Part shown: one piece after another, positions 215 to 60,183 of the stretch | How positions within the stretch are numbered: position 1 is the first letter of the stretch | How the letters are laid out: each line of letters starts with the position of its first letter | Sequence record: MH051915 | DNA length: 64,000 nt | Reading direction: 5' to 3' (one strand) | Source: Enterobacteria phage vB_EcoM_IME339 | The notes under the pieces: generated by a model | The model's database searches: none | The model's input: only the letters and a program-made list of their open reading frames with translations | What the model was told of the DNA's origin: nothing | Made by a program: the position numbers and the translations under genes

Positions 215-2392
215 ATGATTATCACTACTGAAAAAGAAACAATTCTTGGTAATGGTGCTAAATCAAAAGCATTTAGCATCGCAGCAAATCCTAAAGTATT
301 TAAAATTCTGTCATCTGATTTGTATACAAACAAGATTCGCGCAGTAGTCCGTGAATTGATTACCAACATGATTGATGCCCATGCTCTTAATGGAAATCCT
401 GAAAAATTTATCATTCAAGTTCCAGGACGATTAGATCCGCGATTTGTTTGCCGAGATTTTGGTCCAGGTATGAGCGATTTTGATATTCAGGGTGATGATA
501 ATTCTCCTGGGTTGTATAATTCATACTTTAGTTCATCTAAGGCTGAATCTAATGATTTCATTGGTGGATTTGGTTTAGGTTCTAAATCTCCGTTTAGTTA
601 TACTGATACATTTAGTATTACTTCATATCATAAAGGTGAAATTCGTGGTTATGTAGCTTACATGGATGGTGATGGTCCACAGATTAAACCTACATTCGTA
701 AAAGAAATGGGTCCAAACGATAAAACTGGTATTGAAATCGTAGTTCCAGTTGAAGAAAAAGACTTTAGAAACTTTGCTTATGAAGTTTCTTATATCATGC
801 GACCATTCAAAGATTTGGCTATCATTAATGGTCTTGACCGCGAAATTGATTATTTTCCGGATTTTGATGACTATTACGGTGTAAATCCAGAAAGATACTG
901 GCCAGATCGTGGTGGATTGTATGCTATCTATGGCGGTATTGTTTATCCTATTGATGGTGTTATTAGAGACCGTAACTGGTTAAGCATTCGCAATGAAGTG
1001 AATTACATTAAGTTTCCAATGGGTTCACTTGATATTGCTCCATCGCGCGAGGCTCTTTCACTAGATGATCGTACTCGTAAAAATATTATTGAGCGTGTTA
1101 AAGAGCTCAGTGAGCAGGCGTTTAATGAAGATGTAAAACGATTTAAAGAATCTACATCTCCTCGTCATACATACCGTGAATTGATGAAGATGGGATATTC
1201 TGCTCGAGATTATATGATTAGCAATTCAGTCAAATTTACGACTAAAAATCTGTCATATAAAAAGATGCAGAGCATGTTTGAACCTGACAGTAAGTTATGC
1301 AATGCAGGGGTTGTGTATGAAGTAAATCTTGACCCTCGACTGAAACGCATTAAGCAAAGCCATGAAACTTCAGCCGTTGCGTCAAGCTATCGCCTGTTTG
1401 GTATTAATACGACAAAAATTAATATTGTTATTGATAATACTAAAAATCGTGTTAATATTGTCCGTGGATTAGCACGCGCGTTAGATGATAGTGAATTTAA
1501 TAACACCTTAAATATTCATCACAATGAGCGTCTTCTGTTTATTAATCCGGAAGTAGAATCGCAGATTGATTTGCTTCCTGATATTATGGCAATGTTTGAA
1601 AGTGATGAAGTTAACATTCATTATTTGTCAGAAATCGAAGCTTTAGTTAAAAGTTATATTCCAAAGGTAGTAAAAAGTGCAGCTCCTCGTCCTAAAGCTG
1701 CTACTGCATTTAAGTTTGAAATTAAAGACGGGCGCTGGGAAAAAGAGGAACTGTTTACGCTCACATCAGAAGCAGATGAAATTACTGGCTATGTAGCATA
1801 CATGCATCGTTCTGATATTTTCTCTATGGATGGTACTACATCTCTTTGTAATCCGTCTACGAGTATTTTGATTCGTATGGCTAATCTTATTGGCATTAAT
1901 GAATTTTATGTTATTCGTCCACTTTTGCAGAAAAAGGTAAAAGAACTTGGTCAGTGCCAATGTATTTTTGAAACTCTGCGTGATTTATATGTAGATGCTT
2001 TTGACGATGTAGATTATGATAAGTATGTAGGTTATTCAAGTTCAGCTCAGCGATATATTGATAAAATTATTAAGTATCCTGAACTTAATTTTATGATGAA
2101 ATATTTCAGTACAGATGAAGTTTCCGAAGAATATACTCGCCTTGGTAATATGGTTAGTTCATTGCGGGGTGTATATTTCAATGGTGGAAAAGATACCATC
2201 GGTCATGACATCTGGACCGTAACTAATCTTTTTGATGAATTATCACGTAATGCTTTAAAAAACAGTGATAAAATGGTTGCTGAGTTTACCAAGAAATTCC
2301 GTATTGTTTCCGACTTCATCGGTTATCGCAATTCTTTAAGTGATGATGAAGTTTCCCAAATCGCTAAAACTATGAAGGCCCTTGCGGCCTAA
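215..2392 (+). CDS. rIIA: rIIA protein (membrane-associated, GHKL-like ATPase region)
   Basis: 725 aa, same length as T4 rIIA; lies immediately upstream of rIIB. Confidence 0.9.
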
Positions 2393-2403: not shown

Positions 2404-3342
2404 ATGTACAATATTAAATGCCTGACCAAAAACGAACAAGCTGAAATTGTCAAACTGTATTCAAGTGGTAATTACACCCAACAGGAATTGGCTGATTGGC
2501 AAGGTGTATCGGTGGACACAATCCGTCGTGTTTTGAAAAATGCTGAAGAAGCTGAGCGCTCCAAAGTTACCATTAGCGGTGACATTACAGTTACAGTTAA
2601 GAGCGATGCAGCTATTGCTCCAGTTGCTAAATCTGACATTATTTGGAATGCATCTAAAAAATTCATTTCAATTACTGTTGACGGTGTAACTTATAACGCA
2701 ACTCCTAATACTCATTCAAACTTCCAAGAAATTCTTAATCTGCTTGTTGCAGATAAATTGGAAGAAGCGGCGCAAAAAATTAACGTTCGTCGCGCTGTTG
2801 AAAAATATATTTCCGGTGATGTTCGAATTGAAGGTGGAAGCTTGTTCTATCAAAATATTGAATTGCGGTCTGGTTTAGTTGATCGTATTCTCGATTCGAT
2901 GGAAAAAGGTGAAAACTTTGAATTTTATTTTCCGTTCCTGGAAAATCTGTTGGAAAACCCAAGCCAAAAAGCGGTATCTCGACTCTTTGATTTCTTGGTA
3001 GCAAACGATATTGAAATTACAGAAGACGGTTACTTCTATGCTTGGAAAGTAGTTCGCAGCAATTACTTTGACTGCCATTCAAATACTTTTGATAACAGTC
3101 CTGGTAAAGTAGTTAAAATGCCACGTACTCGTGTGAATGACGATGATACACAAACTTGTTCTCGTGGTCTGCATGTGTGTTCTAAATCTTATATTCGTCA
3201 CTTTGGCAGTTCAACCAGCCGAGTTGTAAAAGTTAAAGTACATCCTCGCGATGTAGTATCAATTCCGATTGATTACAACGACGCTAAAATGCGTACCTGC
3301 CAATACGAAGTAGTTGAAGACGTTACTGAACAATTTAAATAA
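2404..3342 (+). CDS. rIIB: rIIB protein
   Basis: 312 aa, same length as T4 rIIB; adjacent to rIIA. Confidence 0.9.
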   Translation: MYNIKCLTKNEQAEIVKLYSSGNYTQQELADWQGVSVDTIRRVLKNAEEAERSKVTISGDITVTVKSDAAIAPVAKSDIIWNASKKFISITVDGVTYNATPNTHSNFQEILNLLVADKLEEAAQKINVRRAVEKYISGDVRIEGGSLFYQNIELRSGLVDRILDSMEKGENFEFYFPFLENLLENPSQKAVSRLFDFLVANDIEITEDGYFYAWKVVRSNYFDCHSNTFDNSPGKVVKMPRTRVNDDDTQTCSRGLHVCSKSYIRHFGSSTSRVVKVKVHPRDVVSIPIDYNDAKMRTCQYEVVEDVTEQFK

Positions 3343-11574: not shown

Positions 11575-12360
11575 TTATACTCTTGCACCATATATTGTAC
11601 CAACTTTAGTCCAAGTTGGAGCATTACCAGTAACAGCTTTACCTGCTGCACCGCCGTTATATTCTGATCCTTGACCGCGAATATTACATTTACCTCCTGC
11701 GGCACCGGCATCACCACCATTCCCGCCATTATAGATACCGTTGACAGACCCTTTACCGGGAGCAGAAATAGTACCAGCAGTAGCACCTTGTTCCATATTA
11801 GCAGACCCACCAGCAGCGCCAAATGGACGACCGCCGCCACCGCCAAAGGTTAATCTCATTTGTGAAAAAGGAGAATAATACCCGCCGCCACCGCCGCCAC
11901 CGCCGCCTGCGATAACACCATTGTTGTTAATACGTAATCTAGTTCCAATTCCGTTATTTATTGCAGTTCCTCCTGCTCCACCGGCAGAGTTATTTCCGCC
12001 ATTCCCGCCACGGCCCCAAACATGCACGCCTGAATTGATATTAAGTGTCACATATGCATTAGTTAATGAGCTAGGAAAATCTAAGCATGGAACACCAGTA
12101 GATTGAGAAACAATATTTCCTGTAATAGTAATAACAACAGGCGTGGACCCTTGTGCTTTTATCCAGTTTATTAATGTATCTTTATTATAAGAATTACTAG
12201 CACCAATGCTATAATATACTTCTTTAGATTGTCCGGCCATTGAGCTCATCCAACCGGGAACTGAAACACGGACTGCTCTCATTGCAGCATCCATCCAACG
12301 TTGTCCAGTTTCATTCACGGCAGATTCACCAATCCAGCCAGGAACACCTACAATTGCCAT
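11575..12360 (-). CDS. 38: gp38 receptor-binding adhesin, T2-type with glycine-rich motifs
   Basis: 261 aa; N-terminus MAIVGVPGWIGESAVNETGQRWM as in T2-family gp38; several poly-Gly blocks; T4 gp38 is a 183-aa chaperone instead. Confidence 0.8.
   Translation of the reverse strand: MAIVGVPGWIGESAVNETGQRWMDAAMRAVRVSVPGWMSSMAGQSKEVYYSIGASNSYNKDTLINWIKAQGSTPVVITITGNIVSQSTGVPCLDFPSSLTNAYVTLNINSGVHVWGRGGNGGNNSAGGAGGTAINNGIGTRLRINNNGVIAGGGGGGGGGYYSPFSQMRLTFGGGGGRPFGAAGGSANMEQGATAGTISAPGKGSVNGIYNGGNGGDAGAAGGKCNIRGQGSEYNGGAAGKAVTGNAPTWTKVGTIYGARV
11829..11907 (-). repeat. (GGN)n low-complexity repeat encoding poly-glycine motifs inside gene 38
   Basis: ccgccgccaccgcc runs on the plus strand; translated GGGGGGGGG on the minus strand. 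Confidence 0.7.
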
Positions 12361-12390: not shown

Positions 12391-15300
12391 TTACATAAGT
12401 TTAGATTCAAGTTCTTTTACACGAGAAGAAAGCGTTTTCACAGCTTCAACCAGAAGAGCAATCTGGGCTTGAGAAGAAACAGTGAGTATTTTATTACCCT
12501 TTCTATCTTCTGTTTCACGGACAGCTTCTGGTAAAACGTCTTGTAACGTTTGAGCCACAATACCCGCTTCAGTTTCAATTGCCTCTCCACCGATGTATTC
12601 AGCTTTATCGTAAATGACACCGTTAAGTTTTTCAACTTTATCAAGTGCATTTTCGATAGGTTTGAAGTTGGATTTTAAACGAATATCAGAACGAATATAA
12701 ACGTTTGGAGCATTTATATTTTTGTATGAGTACAAATCACCATTTTGGAAACGGAATACTTGTACGCTGTTCGCATATATGTCTAATAATCCATCGCCAT
12801 TTTGCTTAATACCAGTATCGTTATCACCAAATGTTATACTGTTTCCACCGAGACCATTTGATGTATTGACACCAAAGGCACCTGTTTGTGGTAGCAGTAC
12901 TTTACCAGGGCAGTCTAGAGTACCGTCCATTGTAAAGCGCCATCTTGCTTGCTGGCCATTAGCATTGTCGCCACGTATACGAATAATACCATCACGCCAT
13001 CCAGCGGTGGTACCAGAGCCGACCCATCCAAATTCAAAGGTTTGGCGATAACCCGCCGAGCCGTAGTTACTGTATGCACCTACAATAGGATAATAACTGC
13101 CTGAATTAGATAAATCCCCATGGTCTGCCATAAAGGTGATTTTAGATTTCATTGTATCCGAGTTATCAGCCCAACCAGACGCTCCTCGCCAACCTGCTAC
13201 TACACGAGACGAGATATTACCTAAACTAGTATTACCACTAGTAACATTCAAGCCACCAGTAACATTCAAGCCACCGCCGGTAATATTTAGACCATGGTTC
13301 ATACCAACGCGACCATCAGCCATATTAATGGAGAAAGGTCTTAAATTATTCCAATCACCACTAGCCGCATTGGGTTTTTCTGACGTATTCTTGTCTGTAG
13401 CTAAAATATAAAAACTTCCACCATCATTTCGAATGATAGCAGCATTCGAATCAATATCATTACCTCTGGATTTAATACGTAAACCTTTTTGGTTATTGGT
13501 AACAAATTCACCACGAGTAACAACATCAGATTCGCCAGCAGCAAACATTCCATCGATGTTATTCAATAATCTTACAGTTTTACCTACTACATGACCTTCT
13601 GGAAGTGTTTCAACAATAGGTTGAATTCCTCCGTTAAGACCGACTACGGTTACTGTACTATTACTGGTGCATGAATATTCGATGACTAAAGCATTTGAAT
13701 ATCCTCCCACATAAACATAAACGTCATATGTATCATTGCTCGTGTTAACTGTGGCAATTTGTGAAAATGCTTCAGAAGTTCTGTTCCATAATGTAGCGTT
13801 AAGTCCTTTAGGATTATTATTTCCAGTTCTAAGAATTATTTCTGCGACAGAAGCTTGCCCATAACTTTTAAAATTAAATCCTGAACCGCCATATATTTTA
13901 AATGCTACTGTTCCAGTAGATTGAGGAATATTAACTGTCGCAAACTTATACCATCCAGTTGTGGCTCCGCCTGACCAACCACCAACATCGACTTTATTGT
14001 TTAACGTTGTATTTAAGTTGGCAAAATTACCAGTACCGCCTGTGATGTTGCCATCTGTACCAATTCGAATATTATTAATTTTAAGAGGCTTAGTAATATC
14101 GACAGTATCAGAGTTTAATGCAATACCATGTGAATAGGTGTAGTTATGCATACGAACGACGTTTCCGCCATCGCCAATACCTAAATACCATTTTGTAACA
14201 TCCGCTTTACGTCCTTGGATAAAGTTAGACGCTGCTTGAGAAGAAGCATTCAAAACAATACCGTCGGAATCCATGTTAACACGAAGTCTAACATCGGTTT
14301 GAACAAATTTTGATACGTTATCAATAGTAAGCAAATTTTTTCCAGCTTGTGTATGATTGCCCATCATAACACTGCCATTTGCGAGATTGATGGTAAATGG
14401 GCGTAAATTACTTATTCCACCACTTTCGCCAGCATCTTTAGGAGTTGGGATAATATAAAAGTTAGTTTCCGAACGACGGAAAATAGCACCGTATTCAGCA
14501 TTCCAAATTCTTAATGCATCAGCAGTTCCGCCAAATTTGGCTTGGCCGTTTATAGACATTCCGTTATTAGCAACTAAACTTGATTCAGTAACAATAGAAC
14601 CGGAAGCAGTAATACCACCAGAAGTTAATAAACCACCATTAACTCGGAGTTGAATAGGCCCGACAGTCGAACCAGGTGCAGGAGCTACGCGTTGAGAATA
14701 AAAATGGTAACCTTGCCCATCTGATACTTCAAAGACTGTTTCACGATTACGATCACCAGATGCGTTAAATGAATTTCCCCATGCTTTAACTGTAACAGGG
14801 CTTTTGTTTTGACCTGCGCGAGTACCACTGTTCCAGTATATACTTCTAGTACCATCTGCAGCCGTCGGGGCGTTAAACTGGAATCCCTGATTATCAGGTC
14901 CATCAATAATTATGCCTTTATTAAGACGAAAAGCTAATGTAGAATTAATACTTCCAGTTGCGGCATTAAAGCTAATACTTTCACCGCCGGTGGTTAACTT
15001 CAATATACCTGGGTTAACGTCTACACCTTCCTGAGTATTAATATTAGTTTTGCCTTTACCGCGGAAATAATGACTCATTTTACCGCCAGCATTGTACCCA
15101 ATATGCGTCTGGCCGTCTCCAGCATTGTTATTATCAGCTTGCGTTTGAACAGACAAGAAAGCGGCATTAGTGCCAGGCATAATCCATGTGGTGCCTTGGT
15201 CCTCGGAACGACCAAATATACCTTTACGAGTACTACGGAAACTGTCAGGAGTAATAGAAGCAACAGAATATCCACCGCCAACTAGATCAAATACACCAGT

Positions 15301-16247: not shown

Positions 16248-16907
16248 TTAATAATAGCCGAAATCTTGAACAGAATCCTTAATTACGATTTGGTCAAATC
16301 GTGGAACATGTGAAGGTTGAGATGCGGGATTCTGTGAGAAAAAGTTTGGCGCTGTTAAATTACCTGTCATAGTATCGCCAGAACGCAACACTCTAGAGTT
16401 CGCATTTGCTGTAACAGTATTTATTGCTCCATCCACATAGTCCTTTCTAGTAAGGTCATTTGCGGCAATGGGCGCTGCGGCTTCGGCTCGCACCTGACGC
16501 TGTGAATTTATATTACCACGGGCCGAAATTTCACCGTCACGAACGTTAAAAACAATTGTCCTGGGTCCTGTTCCTTGAGATGATTTAAATCCGATACCAT
16601 ACCAAGATACTATATCAAGGTTAACCTTATCATAAGTTGCTCCATCACCTGGCCCAACAAACACCCCGGTCAGACCATTGCCAGCTGCCGGGACTTGAAT
16701 ACCCTTGTTAAAGATAACTCGGCCTAGATAAGTACCGCCATTAGCTTTAGAAACGAAATCGTTATCAGCAGCTTGTGGTTTATTATATTCTGAATATATT
16801 TTAAATGATTTATAGAGTACATCGTCACCGGCTGGATTCAATGGAAAATTTCCTTGATGCCAAATGACAGAGCCTCCAGTTGTTGAACCTACTTTTAAAT
16901 CAGCCAT
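16248..16907 (-). CDS. 36: long tail fiber hinge connector gp36
   Basis: 219 aa (T4 gp36 221 aa); synteny. Confidence 0.85.
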
Positions 16908-16930
16908 TGTATGCCCCTTTATTTTAATAG

Positions 16931-16938
16931 TATTTATA
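16931..16938 (-). promoter_or_regulatory. late promoter TATAAATA upstream of gene 36
   Basis: Plus strand reads tatttata, 24 nt upstream of the gp36 start. Confidence 0.55.
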
Positions 16939-16969
16939 AAGAAAAAGGGAACCCGAAGGCTCCCTCAAT

Positions 16970-18085
16970 TTATACTTCTCTAAATTCTTGCCCAAACACT
17001 TTACCAGTTTTAGACGATGCTTGCGTAGGAAGTACCATTATATCCGGAGGTGAAGCAGATTCACAGATATAATTAACACGAATGCCATTTACGCCAAATT
17101 CAGCAGGTTTCGAAATTCCGCCATTTCTTGACACTTCAGAAAAACTTAAATTCCTCATGCCACCTTGACCGGCTTGTGCAGTTCTTTGTGCGTATATCGT
17201 AAATCCTACTGCATTTTCTGGAACAACTACATAATCTTCCTTTAATTCCCAAGACCCAGCTTGTCCGGTAAACTCAGCTTGTGTCGAGGAAATATATCCA
17301 TTAGATGCGTTATAAAAACGGATAGATATATTTGTGGTTCCAAGCGCAAGTAAATCAGCATCGGCATATAATTGAGCTTTAAGATAAAGCACATCGCCAG
17401 GAATTAAATTATAATCAGAGAGTTTACTTATAGCAGCTGAAGTTGGTAATCGCGCAATTTCGTTATTAGTTCCACCAACCGCTGACATAAATTGCTCAAC
17501 GCTTTCGTATGTTCTTCTTGGAAAGCCGGTAGCTCCAACGTCTTCTAAACTGTCAAATACAACATCTAAAATAGTTTGATAATCATCTGTGCTTTTTCTA
17601 TTACTTAATTTAACATGCTCTAATGCAATAGCTCTTTTAGAAGAAGTGTAAAAAGCAGCATATGATACGTCGAATCTTGACAATATAGAATCAGATGGAA
17701 AAGCAGACGTTCCTGCGGTTCTTAGCCAAGATACTACTTCAGGAGGAAAATTAACCTTTCCGCTAGTTAATATAGCAACAAGTCTATTATTCGCCAAAGA
17801 ATTCATGAAACTAACAAAAGCAGCTGATGTAGTATCATTTGAAGTCGAAAAAGCATATGACTTACTATCAACTAATGCTCCTGTAGAAGGGTCAAAAACT
17901 CTTAAATGAAGACCTGCATTAAATGTTTGATTTCCGACAGGATTATCCTGAAATTTAACGTACGGTCCTGCTGTAGAAAGCGGGCAAGAACCCGCTATAC
18001 TTATTTTGTATCTTACTGAATTACTTTCCGATAAAAATGGCGTTTGGACGTATCCTTGTCCAAACTCTGCCATAAATTTTTCCAT
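16970..18085 (-). CDS. 35: long tail fiber hinge protein gp35
   Basis: 371 aa (T4 gp35 372 aa); synteny. Confidence 0.85.
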   Translation of the reverse strand: MEKFMAEFGQGYVQTPFLSESNSVRYKISIAGSCPLSTAGPYVKFQDNPVGNQTFNAGLHLRVFDPSTGALVDSKSYAFSTSNDTTSAAFVSFMNSLANNRLVAILTSGKVNFPPEVVSWLRTAGTSAFPSDSILSRFDVSYAAFYTSSKRAIALEHVKLSNRKSTDDYQTILDVVFDSLEDVGATGFPRRTYESVEQFMSAVGGTNNEIARLPTSAAISKLSDYNLIPGDVLYLKAQLYADADLLALGTTNISIRFYNASNGYISSTQAEFTGQAGSWELKEDYVVVPENAVGFTIYAQRTAQAGQGGMRNLSFSEVSRNGGISKPAEFGVNGIRVNYICESASPPDIMVLPTQASSKTGKVFGQEFREV

Positions 18086-42688: not shown

Positions 42689-43548
42689 AGCCAACTATTT
42701 TGACTGATATTGATGGAGTATGTTTAAGCTGGCAATCAGGCCTTCCTTATTTTGCTCAGAAATATAATCTTCCATTAGAACATATTTTAAAAATGATCCA
42801 AGATGAGAAATTTATTTCTCCAGGTAAACTCTTTAATTGTGACGAAGAACTTGGCGTCAAGTTAATTGAAAAATACAATCGTTCAGATTTTATTCGTTAT
42901 TTGTCTCCGTATAAAGATGCCCTGTGTGTAATTAACAAATTAAAAGAAGATTATAATTTTGTAGCTGTTACAGCATTGGGTGATTCTATTGACGCTCTGT
43001 TGAATCGTCAATTTAATTTGAATGCTCTTTTTCCTGGTGCCTTCTCAGAAGTAATGATGTGTGGTCATGATTCTTCAAAAGAAGAGTTATTCAAAAAGGC
43101 AAAAGAGAAATATAACGTAATTTGTTATATTGACGATCTCGCTCACCACTGCGACCATGCGAGTGAAATATTAAATGTTCCGGTTTATTGGATGGCTCGA
43201 GGAGAGCGTGATAAAATTCCAAAAACTGCGCAGCGAGTTTATACATGGAATGATGTAGAAAATAAGCTTTTTTCACCAAAGGAAAATAAAGAAAGTTTTG
43301 ATAGTGAAAAAGCTATAAAAGATGTAATTGAGAAGATGGTTAAAAACGATTCTTTTCGTTGGAACACTACCTGGAGAACTCCTGGATTTAATCCGTATAA
43401 TCCATATTATACACATCCATATAATCCATATTATACACACCCGTATCATATGAATCCATTCCATACGTGGAGTTATACCAAGCCTGGCGATGCAGGGTAT
43501 TTTAATAGATTTACTAGTGGTGATAATATTTTCCAAGGAGCATTCTAA
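42685..43548 (+). CDS. HAD-superfamily hydrolase-like protein (nucleotidase-like N-terminus) with Tyr/Pro/His-rich repeat tail
   Basis: HAD motif I LTDIDGV near the N-terminus; C-terminus NPYNPYYTHPYNPYYTHPYHMNPFHTW. Confidence 0.5.
   Translation: MKPTILTDIDGVCLSWQSGLPYFAQKYNLPLEHILKMIQDEKFISPGKLFNCDEELGVKLIEKYNRSDFIRYLSPYKDALCVINKLKEDYNFVAVTALGDSIDALLNRQFNLNALFPGAFSEVMMCGHDSSKEELFKKAKEKYNVICYIDDLAHHCDHASEILNVPVYWMARGERDKIPKTAQRVYTWNDVENKLFSPKENKESFDSEKAIKDVIEKMVKNDSFRWNTTWRTPGFNPYNPYYTHPYNPYYTHPYHMNPFHTWSYTKPGDAGYFNRFTSGDNIFQGAF
43393..43440 (+). repeat. 24-bp tandem repeat (2 copies, near-identical) inside the HAD-like ORF
   Basis: ccgtataatccatattatacacat / ccatataatccatattatacacac. Confidence 0.7.
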
Positions 43549-56305: not shown

Positions 56306-56317
56306 TATTTATAAATA
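56306..56317. promoter_or_regulatory. divergent overlapping late promoters (TATAAATA on both strands) between genes 51 and 26
   Basis: tatttataaata: minus-strand TATAAATA at 56306..56313, plus-strand TATAAATA at 56310..56317. Confidence 0.55.
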
Positions 56318-58263: not shown

Positions 58264-58318
58264 TGTGACCTTTAGTCTATAGTTTTGGCCCTTCCTTTTT
58301 GGTTGGGCCTTTTTTAAT

Positions 58319-58621
58319 TTAAAAGCTTTCTTCTACTTCATCGTCTGAATCTTCTAATTCAGCTCTTTTTCCTGCCAAAGCATCTCTCACAGAGATGTCA
58401 TCAGTATCTTTTAATTCAGTTTCTTTAACTCTTTTCTTATAATAAGCTTCAAGTTCTTCTAGACCTTCTAATGTTTGACAATCTTTAACTCTTTTCTTAT
58501 AATAAGCTTCAAGTTCTTCTAGACCTTCTAATGTTTGACAAGAGGCAATTTTACCCATAAATTCATCAATAGAAGCTTCATAAAGAAATTGTTTAAATTC
58601 TAGTAACATCTTTTTCTCCAA
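58319..58621 (-). CDS. uvsW.1: UvsW.1-like small acidic protein with internal 20-aa tandem duplication
   Basis: 100 aa immediately downstream of uvsW on the same strand; duplicated CQTLEGLEELEAYYKKRVK block. Confidence 0.65.
   Translation of the reverse strand: MEKKMLLEFKQFLYEASIDEFMGKIASCQTLEGLEELEAYYKKRVKDCQTLEGLEELEAYYKKRVKETELKDTDDISVRDALAGKRAELEDSDDEVEESF
58422..58541. repeat. perfect 60-bp tandem duplication (2 copies), in frame within uvsW.1
   Basis: 58422..58481 is identical to 58482..58541. Confidence 0.85.
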
Positions 58622-58634
58622 AGGGCCGAAGCCC

Positions 58635-60146
58635 TTATAAATTAACTGTTTTCATTACGTAATTAAATTTTTCATCTGCGTAGCGCTGAATACGATCAAT
58701 ACCGTGTTTTAAAAGATAGTTCAAATGAACATATTTCTTTTTCGTATTAGCAGATTTTGGCTTAACACCGCAATCATCAATGAGGTCCCAGACCGTTGCG
58801 ATTGTTTTAGAACCGTGCTTACGTAATACGCGACCTATTGTTTGCAATACAATAATTTTAGATTTAACACCGTGCGCTAAAACAACGTGATGTAGATTTT
58901 TAACTGAAATACCAGTAGAAAATACACCATAACTAGCTACTATAATTATTCCTTTACCGTTTTCAGCTAAGGTTTTCATTACGTTGCGTGTTTCGGTATC
59001 AACTTCCCCTGATACGTAATAAACTTTATCGTATTCATTTTTAATTAAATCGAAAATAGCTTTACCGTGCGATACGTGTTTAAACATGACAAAAGCGTTT
59101 TCATCTTTTTGTGCAAGTTTAATAGCTAATTTAGCGATCCATTTATTTCTTTTACTGAGCCCAGTAATAATTTTTATTTCTTCTTGGTAAGTTTTTCCCT
59201 TTAATTTAGTAGTGAACTCATCGGGATAGCGAAGAAAAATACTATTAATTTTTAGCTCAGTTACTTGTCCATCTTCCATTAATTTAGAAGTCGTTACTGG
59301 CTTAAATATTTCACCAAACATTCCAACATACTGCATGATATTGGCTTTGCCATCACGTAATGAACCAGACAAACCGAATTTGAACATGCAGTTATTTAAA
59401 CCTGATATGATAGATGAAATACTTTTTCCTGTAGCAAGATGGCATTCATCATTCATCATCATTCCAAACTGTGAGAACCATTCTTTTGGTTGTTTTACTA
59501 CAGTTTGCCATGTACCAACAATTACCGGTGCATCATTTTTATATTTATCATCTTTTGATGCTCCGCCGCCGATTTTCTTTATCATTGCATGACTGAATAA
59601 ACGATAATCAACAAAGTCATCAGCCATCTGAGTTGTTAAAGCAGTTGTTGGAACAATGATAAGAATTTTACCTTCATAATTTTCCAAATAATAACGTGCA
59701 AGCAAAGCTTGAATTAAAGATTTACCTGCGGATGTTGGAAGATTAAGAATTCTACGACGATTAACTAATCCTTCGAACACTGCATCTTTTTGATACCAGT
59801 GTGGTTCAATTCTTTTATTTCCTGAATAGATTTCTAACTTAGAAAGCCATTCATCAAAATCTTTTCTTGATAATTCTTCTTTTTCGTTAATTTGCGGGTC
59901 AATCCAAGCTTTATAGCCAAAGTTATCGCAGAACTTTTTAATTTGCCCGACTAAACCAAACGGAAGAAGGCGATTATAATCTAATAGACGGATTCGTCCA
60001 TCCCAGTGACCATACTTGTATTTCGGATTAAAACGATACCCATCAGCTTCGAAGCTAAAGAAATCACGGAGTTCATGAAATGTACTTTCTTCACAATCAA
60101 TTCTCACGTGACTAAAATCATAAAAATGCACTTTAATGTCAGTCAT
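58635..60146 (-). CDS. uvsW: UvsW RNA-DNA / DNA helicase (SF2)
   Basis: 503 aa (T4 UvsW 502 aa); helicase motifs; sequence matches my recall of T4 UvsW. Confidence 0.9.
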   Translation of the reverse strand: MTDIKVHFYDFSHVRIDCEESTFHELRDFFSFEADGYRFNPKYKYGHWDGRIRLLDYNRLLPFGLVGQIKKFCDNFGYKAWIDPQINEKEELSRKDFDEWLSKLEIYSGNKRIEPHWYQKDAVFEGLVNRRRILNLPTSAGKSLIQALLARYYLENYEGKILIIVPTTALTTQMADDFVDYRLFSHAMIKKIGGGASKDDKYKNDAPVIVGTWQTVVKQPKEWFSQFGMMMNDECHLATGKSISSIISGLNNCMFKFGLSGSLRDGKANIMQYVGMFGEIFKPVTTSKLMEDGQVTELKINSIFLRYPDEFTTKLKGKTYQEEIKIITGLSKRNKWIAKLAIKLAQKDENAFVMFKHVSHGKAIFDLIKNEYDKVYYVSGEVDTETRNVMKTLAENGKGIIIVASYGVFSTGISVKNLHHVVLAHGVKSKIIVLQTIGRVLRKHGSKTIATVWDLIDDCGVKPKSANTKKKYVHLNYLLKHGIDRIQRYADEKFNYVMKTVNL

Positions 60147-60175: not shown

Positions 60176-60183
60176 TATTTATA
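60176..60183 (-). promoter_or_regulatory. late promoter TATAAATA upstream of uvsW
   Basis: Plus strand reads tatttata, 30 nt upstream of the uvsW start. Confidence 0.5.

Follow-up and report, generated by a model that had tools for sequence, protein, structure and literature searches.

Junction promoters are known from the circles and tandem dimers of insertion sequences such as IS911, IS30, IS21 and IS2, in which a -35 element in one end abuts a -10 element in the other. In T4 infection, uvsW is expressed late. UvsW.1 is a conserved protein of the T4 family whose function is still unclear; Nelson and Benkovic are said to have found in 2007 that it forms a complex with UvsW and inhibits the annealing activity of UvsW. 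[quoted passage not shown] Among phages assembled from short reads only, repeats of ~79 bp were described in 7/10 phages, and most of them were confirmed as artefacts by Sanger sequencing (PMC10438801).

Here we analysed a stretch of 64,000 nucleotides (hereafter the window) from Enterobacteria phage vB_EcoM_IME339, whose genome of 164,366 bp is deposited as GenBank MH051915 (PMC6499177). Its uvsW.1 gene agrees with that of T4, which encodes a 76-aa protein (2JPN, PF11637), in position and strand, in the ribosome-binding site and in the UUCG hairpin between the cistrons. The IME339 protein has 96 aa and carries the loop and helix 2 twice, with D in place of E at the joint; this form was not found in any other member searched. 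By sequence and position it belongs to the UvsW.1 family, but it departs from the uniform single-domain length of 74-79 aa. We lean towards the view that the repeat behind this difference is a real and very young tandem duplication that occurred in IME339 only.

The original prediction had placed a perfect in-frame tandem duplication of 20 codons in uvsW.1, adjoining uvsW downstream, and TRF, the ORF list and the alignment to 2JPN bear this out. Positions 58422-58481 are identical to 58482-58541 (60 nt each, 100% identity, by TRF and repeat search). TRF reported a single array at 58422-58541 with a period of 60, 2.0 copies, 100% matches, 0 indels and a score of 240. An exact scan of the window showed that the matched run at period 60 is exactly 60, so that there is no microhomology beyond the 60-nt unit. 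An exact repeat of 60 nt is expected by chance at about 4^-60 per position, which excludes chance, and the array is the sole exact tandem duplication with a period of at least 30 in the 64-kb window. The repeat search detected no inverted repeats flanking the unit.

uvsW.1 starts with ATG, has GGAG 6 nt upstream and begins 25 nt downstream of uvsW on the same strand, and the uvsW to uvsW.1 layout is common to KAW1E185, IME340, IME281 and IME341. In comparison with KAW1E185, the nearest relative, the 60-nt insertion is the sole difference in 451 nt. The frame of uvsW.1 stays open because 60 is a multiple of three, and the codon at the joint reads GA/T because the unit starts at a third codon base. 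Therefore the claim that 20 residues are duplicated holds for the DNA copies, which are identical, and needs refinement for the peptide copies CQTLEGLEELEAYYKKRVKD and CQTLEGLEELEAYYKKRVKE, which are 19/20 identical: the first ends in Asp and the second in Glu, a Glu to Asp change at the joint. The product is acidic, as had been stated, with 27 D/E versus 14 K/R and a pI of 4.4. The features of the locus are collected in Table 1.

Table 1. Features of the uvsW-uvsW.1 locus of IME339, in positions of the window.
Feature	Position	Strand	Description	Basis
uvsW.1 ORF	58319..58609	-	stop codon included; 96 aa, ordinarily 76 aa	ORF list, PF11637, 2JPN
Copy 1 of unit	58422..58481	-	second on coding strand, residues 44-63 CQTLEGLEELEAYYKKRVKE	TRF, translation
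Copy 2 of unit	58482..58541	-	first on coding strand, residues 24-43 CQTLEGLEELEAYYKKRVKD, last codon GAT	
Predicted -35 hexamer	58475..58480	+	TTGACA; end of copy 1; antisense of Cys-Gln codons (TGT CAA)	
Predicted -10 hexamer	58498..58503	+	TATAAT; near start of copy 2; antisense of Tyr-Tyr-Lys codons	
Weaker promoter-like site	58535..58563	+	TTGACA-17-TAAATT, 10/12; also in single-copy allele	promoter scan
Hairpin	58623..58634	- (RNA)	GGGC-UUCG-GCCC, C(UUCG)G tetraloop	minimum-free-energy fold
uvsW helicase ORF	58635..60146	-	503 aa; upstream of uvsW.1	ORF list, homologous-locus annotations
T4 late-promoter motif	60176..60183	-	TATAAATA; 30 nt upstream of uvsW ATG	motif search

Three shorter-period repeats lie elsewhere in the window. 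At 11882-11907, CCGCCGCCA is repeated 2.9 times in a 261-aa ORF at the position of the gp38 adhesin; at 13235-13275, an 18-nt unit occurs 2.3 times (exact 18+18 at 13240) in a 1282-aa ORF at the gp37 position; and at 43391-43446, a 24-nt unit occurs 2.3 times (90%) in a 287-aa ORF.

The duplication occurs in a single deposited sequence, that of IME339 (MH051915). The uvsW.1 locus was found in 498 phage records, and among the matches listed all span 391 nt, which corresponds to one copy. A 70-nt query over the copy-copy joint gave 0 matches in phage genomes at E <= 1e-14; as a positive control, a query of equal length over the ordinary left boundary retrieved 497 records at the same threshold. 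Thirteen of these 497 relatives are 100% identical over the query, yet single copy. Moreover, the 34-nt joint was not found in IMG/VR, JGI metagenome or GTDB genome contigs, and no second copy of the 96-aa protein was found in Logan or ENA, the only occurrence being the NCBI-derived record. The IME339 product, which a search of 5.8 billion proteins showed to be identical to AWD91499.1 / YP_010094506.1, is the only 96-aa protein in 75 homologue clusters from that collection, in which the other full-length members have 74-79 aa.

The original prediction had read the zero divergence between the copies as the mark of either a very recent event or an unstable, copy-number-variable locus. The first part stands, with an assembly artefact beside it. 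The second did not hold up: 497/497 relatives have the ordinary boundary and 0 the joint, and IME339 itself has exactly 2.0 copies that are 100% identical. The comparison of uvsW.1 length in T4 and relatives that had been proposed as a check likewise revealed no variation in copy number (76 aa in T4, 74-79 aa in the other full-length homologues). An alignment of 35 diverse UvsW.1 members contains no core indels, and the extra 20-residue block is missing from all 35; the lack of core indels in this alignment indicates that the length of the family is under purifying selection. A profile search of 1.84 billion representatives found no true internal repeat of the UvsW.1 domain. Two profile matches of four stretches each, considered as natural domain repeats, were rejected as false positives (a plant PPR/DYW protein and an Fn3-repeat protein).

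The protein is a clear member of its family apart from the insertion. IME339 UvsW.1 matches PF11637 (UvsW.1 domain) with E = 1e-38 and 131.7 bits (cut-off 25), and PDB 2JPN (T4 UvsW.1) with E = 1.9e-47. The alignment to 2JPN consists of two collinear stretches, each fully identical, that share 20 T4 residues; outside the 20-aa insertion, the product is 100% identical to T4 UvsW.1. A model of an ordinary 75-aa homologue has helices at 4-22, 26-42 and 47-68 (pLDDT 72.8, pTM 0.53) and superimposes on the NMR structure 2JPN with a TM of 0.73. In this ordinary-length model, the duplicated block, T4 residues 24-43, comprises the H1-H2 loop and all of helix 2, and many invariant residues of the family fall within this block in the alignment of 35 diverse members.

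Modelled at equal alignment depth, the 96-aa form has four helices at low confidence (pLDDT 51, pTM 0.26), and a structure search with this low-confidence model no longer retrieved 2JPN. With the extra helix, helix 3 would run in the opposite direction with respect to helix 1, unless one of the copies is looped out. The models thus far suggest that the three-helix fold is probably disturbed by the 20-aa insertion, and that the function of UvsW.1 is probably weakened or altered as a result. The proposal that repeat number modulates the interaction with UvsW fits these models less well, as they suggest that the effect of the insertion is disruption of the three-helix fold rather than tuning of UvsW binding.

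The UvsW.1 domain also occurs in longer proteins. It is N-terminal in proteins of 260-301 aa (P0094, P0096-P0100, P0102-P0104, P0106 and P0107) and C-terminal in proteins of 121-145 aa (P0088 and P0089). The remaining ~220 residues of P0094 and P0096, the two that were scanned, gave no Pfam family match. These fusions might hint at a partner or function of the domain.

Unexpectedly, and beyond what the original prediction had noted, the joint between the copies carries a perfect match to the sigma-70 consensus, TTGACA-17 nt-TATAAT (12/12), at 58475-58503 on the plus strand, as revealed by a promoter scan and scripts. The 17-nt spacer spans the joint 58481/58482: the -35 hexamer ends 1 nt before it and the -10 hexamer starts 16 nt after it. 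From the usual distance between -10 and +1, transcription is predicted to start near 58510-58511. Because the -35 hexamer comes from copy 1 and the -10 hexamer from copy 2, the junction promoter exists only through the duplication. With one copy only, the order of the hexamers is reversed, TATAAT preceding TTGACA by 37 nt, and the single-copy allele has 3/6 matches at the corresponding -35 position. Since the spacer equals the period minus 43, only a period of 60 yields the optimal 17.

We estimated how often such a site would arise by accident. The joint is the 1 site with 12/12 matches in the 64-kb window, and none was found in the complete genomes of IME340, IME281 and IME341 (508 kb). The analytical probability that a random tandem duplication (random start, period 30-300) creates a 12/12 site is 1.1-2.3e-5. 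A Monte Carlo simulation of 400,000 trials gave 2.5e-5 for 12/12, 1.0e-3 for at least 11/12 and 1.8e-2 for at least 10/12. The promoter was noticed post hoc, and the P-value was therefore discounted about ten-fold for the look-elsewhere effect.

We also considered that the duplication merely strengthened a conserved antisense promoter. This candidate was rejected, as the hexamers differ at synonymous sites (TGC in IME340, both hexamers in IME281), from which it follows that the family has no conserved antisense promoter. The weaker promoter-like site downstream (Table 1) lacks conservation in IME340 and IME281 and is probably a by-product of codon choice; at its -35-like position 58535, IME340 has TTGGCA and IME281 CTGACA. 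A search for literature usable here on duplication-junction promoters in T4, or on T4 start-site maps, found none.

By analogy, the closest mechanistic counterpart of the putative promoter is the insertion-sequence junction promoter. As in those elements, the -35/-10 pair of IME339 exists only where the end of one unit joins the start of the next copy. In contrast to them, the IME339 unit is 60 nt of uvsW.1 coding sequence with no transposase or mobile element, and the site is antisense to its host gene. The likeness to T4 early promoters (PMC2988021) lies in the predicted sigma-70 type and in the early strand and direction, and no natural site in the window comes as close to the consensus as the junction hexamers do. 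Unlike T4 early promoters, however, the site has neither TGn nor an A-tract (A-rich) UP element, the elements that give resistance to AsiA (PMC2988021). Without them, the promoter should be silenced quickly by AsiA.

The early genes rIIA, rIIB, 52 and motA lie on the plus strand of the window, and the late-promoter motif ahead of uvsW is consistent with uvsW and uvsW.1 being late, minus-strand genes. With the plus strand as the early strand and a late motif upstream of uvsW, the putative junction promoter would fire early and antisense to two late genes. From the junction promoter to inh (60197), neither strand was found to contain an intrinsic terminator.

Two RNA structures frame uvsW.1. The UUCG hairpin immediately follows the stop codon of uvsW, 3 nt ahead of the Shine-Dalgarno sequence GGAG of uvsW.1, and may stabilise the mRNA, or couple and regulate translation of uvsW.1. 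On the other side, between the convergent uvsY.-2 and uvsW.1, a hairpin of GGCCC...GGGCC followed by T6 occupies 58287-58315; owing to its long loop, it was missed by the simple terminator scan. A conserved bidirectional terminator has been described between uvsY.-2 and uvsW.1 (Nolan et al. 2006). Elsewhere in the window, at 56306-56317, two overlapping TATAAATA late-promoter motifs on opposite strands lie between the divergent genes 51 (-) and 26 (+) and form a compact back-to-back late promoter pair.

Based on these data, we propose the following course of events for a real duplication. A 60-bp segment of uvsW.1 would have been copied head to tail without microhomology at its ends, and the product would have gained a second H1-H2 loop and helix 2. 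The joint would place TTGACA 17 bp upstream of TATAAT on the early-transcribed strand, and the resulting promoter would point towards inh and hoc, reading uvsW.1 and uvsW in antisense. Host RNA polymerase would presumably fire from it right after infection, until AsiA blocks -35 recognition. Slippage-type duplications usually show microhomology at their ends. The missing microhomology counts weakly against a slippage event. Evidence apart from the promoter is weak overall and pulls both ways.

Whether such a duplication was also kept because of its promoter, that is, whether it represents de novo birth of a sigma-70 promoter of maximal strength in a conserved phage gene, is a separate matter; we consider this less likely than not, although it makes up about half of our estimate for a real event. 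If the duplication was retained for a reason, the promoter is the most likely one, as the spacer reaches exactly 17 at no period other than 60. Early antisense RNA would then cover uvsW.1 and uvsW, the late gene for an R-loop helicase; such RNA could reduce UvsW or postpone its appearance, which would extend origin-dependent replication, or it could instead seed a new R-loop. The same duplication would also remodel the UvsW.1 protein. We know of no benefit of an early antisense transcript at uvsW.1/uvsW, and the lack of recurrence in 497 relatives means that any advantage is not general. The coincidence of ~2.5e-5 is equally unlikely for a scar and for a neutral duplication, and is expected only if the promoter was the reason for retention. 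We assumed a prior of 1e-4 to a few 1e-3 that a private duplication is an adaptive creation of a promoter. With this prior and the discounted P-value, selection for the promoter comes out anywhere between improbable and fairly probable, and the value that we chose lies in the lower half of this range, where it reads as unlikely but worth entertaining.

The strongest alternative is that the repeat is a scar of assembly or curation, which we regard as quite possible, short of probable. The first codon of the window is the ATG of rIIA.1, and rIIA and rIIB follow at 215..2392 and 2404..3342. The rIIA and rIIB coordinates are equal in the sister genome IME340, and IME281 and IME341 likewise start at the ATG of rIIA.1. 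This shared start implies that position 1 of the window is position 1 of the record, that the T4-like records of the study were rotated by hand, and thus that the original contig ends were joined somewhere inside the record. A 60-nt overlap of the contig ends of the circularly permuted genome might have been pasted twice when the record was re-opened at the rIIA.1 ATG; in a variant of this explanation, two contigs shared a 60-nt overlap. In either case, the promoter and the kept frame would be coincidental. The original prediction had named an assembly error without such a concrete route.

Several properties of the record suit such a scar. It was re-opened by hand after assembly, and its perfect identity, occurrence in one record only, arbitrary position and zero microhomology all fit an untrimmed overlap. 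In these respects, a perfect repeat of tens of bp in one record of a genome re-oriented by hand, it resembles the spurious repeats of about 79 bp known from 7/10 phages (PMC10438801). The study used short reads only, from Illumina MiSeq, and Newbler 3.0 with default settings, and paired 300-nt MiSeq reads are stated for its host-strain libraries (PMC6499177). In favour of a real duplication, reads of 300 nt would span the 120-bp array and could have allowed it to be assembled correctly. Against a scar, Newbler works by overlap, and de Bruijn assemblers do not typically use a k-mer length of 60.

Against a scar stand the sister genomes. In the rebuilt complete genomes of IME340, IME281 and IME341, which were handled identically, we found no exact tandem duplication (period 12-600) and no terminal overlap; this comparison took in the three T4-like sisters and left out the four smaller phages of the study. 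Moreover, a random scar yields a perfect sigma-70 promoter with a probability of about 2.5e-5, and an in-frame outcome is expected 1/3 of the time. Unlike the repeats of PMC10438801, the IME339 repeat has clean sisters, and its joint looks functional in a way that hardly any random scar would.

Two further observations concern the records of the sister genomes. In IME281 (MH051913), at 16648-17778, the CDS of gp35 is only 657 nt long, and ~470 unannotated nt separate it from gp34; in IME340 and IME341, gp35 has about 1.1 kb, and the IME281 gene may contain a frameshift or truncation in the record. Two regions of IME340 (MH051916), 115764-124097 and 154526-155344, contain series of neighbouring ORFs that are unrelated to each other but share the name 'thioredoxin' or 'molybdenum ABC transporter'; these errors of annotation propagation imply limited curation of the submission batch.

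A further alternative takes the duplication as real and as a neutral or mildly harmful private mutation that was fixed by a single-plaque bottleneck; it forms part of our estimate for a real event and seems unlikely to us. The laboratory would have tolerated a UvsW.1 hypomorph, and the promoter would be coincidental and without consequence. The identical copies in a single isolate and the relatives without recurrence fit this explanation, as do the poorer model of the 96-aa form (pLDDT 51 and pTM 0.26, versus 72.8 and 0.53 for the ordinary form) and its failure to retrieve 2JPN. However, it needs the same coincidence of ~2.5e-5 as the artefact does, and the invariant residues in the block, together with the absence of core indels in the 35 members, point to purifying selection on length. 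A contingency-type, copy-number-variable repeat whose unit number tunes the UvsW.1-UvsW interaction is very improbable, as nothing but the identity of the two in-frame units speaks for it, whereas the 497 relatives are all single-copy, no alleles with at least 3 or with degenerate copies were found, and the remaining full-length homologues all have 74-79 aa.

Taken together, the IME339 repeat would be a young mutation that occurred once or else an error of curation. The perfect promoter at the joint is the sole feature that lifts the duplication above the ordinary. If the repeat is an artefact, the IME339 RefSeq/GenBank record (MH051915) is wrong by 60 bp and lists a 96-aa 'DNA helicase' that is spurious (AWD91499.1, YP_010094506.1); a correction would then be due, and the record would be an instructive case of the residue of hand rotation in permuted phage genomes. 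If the duplication is real, IME339 carries a natural insertion variant of UvsW.1 in which the most conserved helix is doubled, and which would be a ready-made probe of the relationship between UvsW.1 and UvsW. It would also be a clean natural case in which a lytic phage gained a promoter from the joint of a short tandem duplication.
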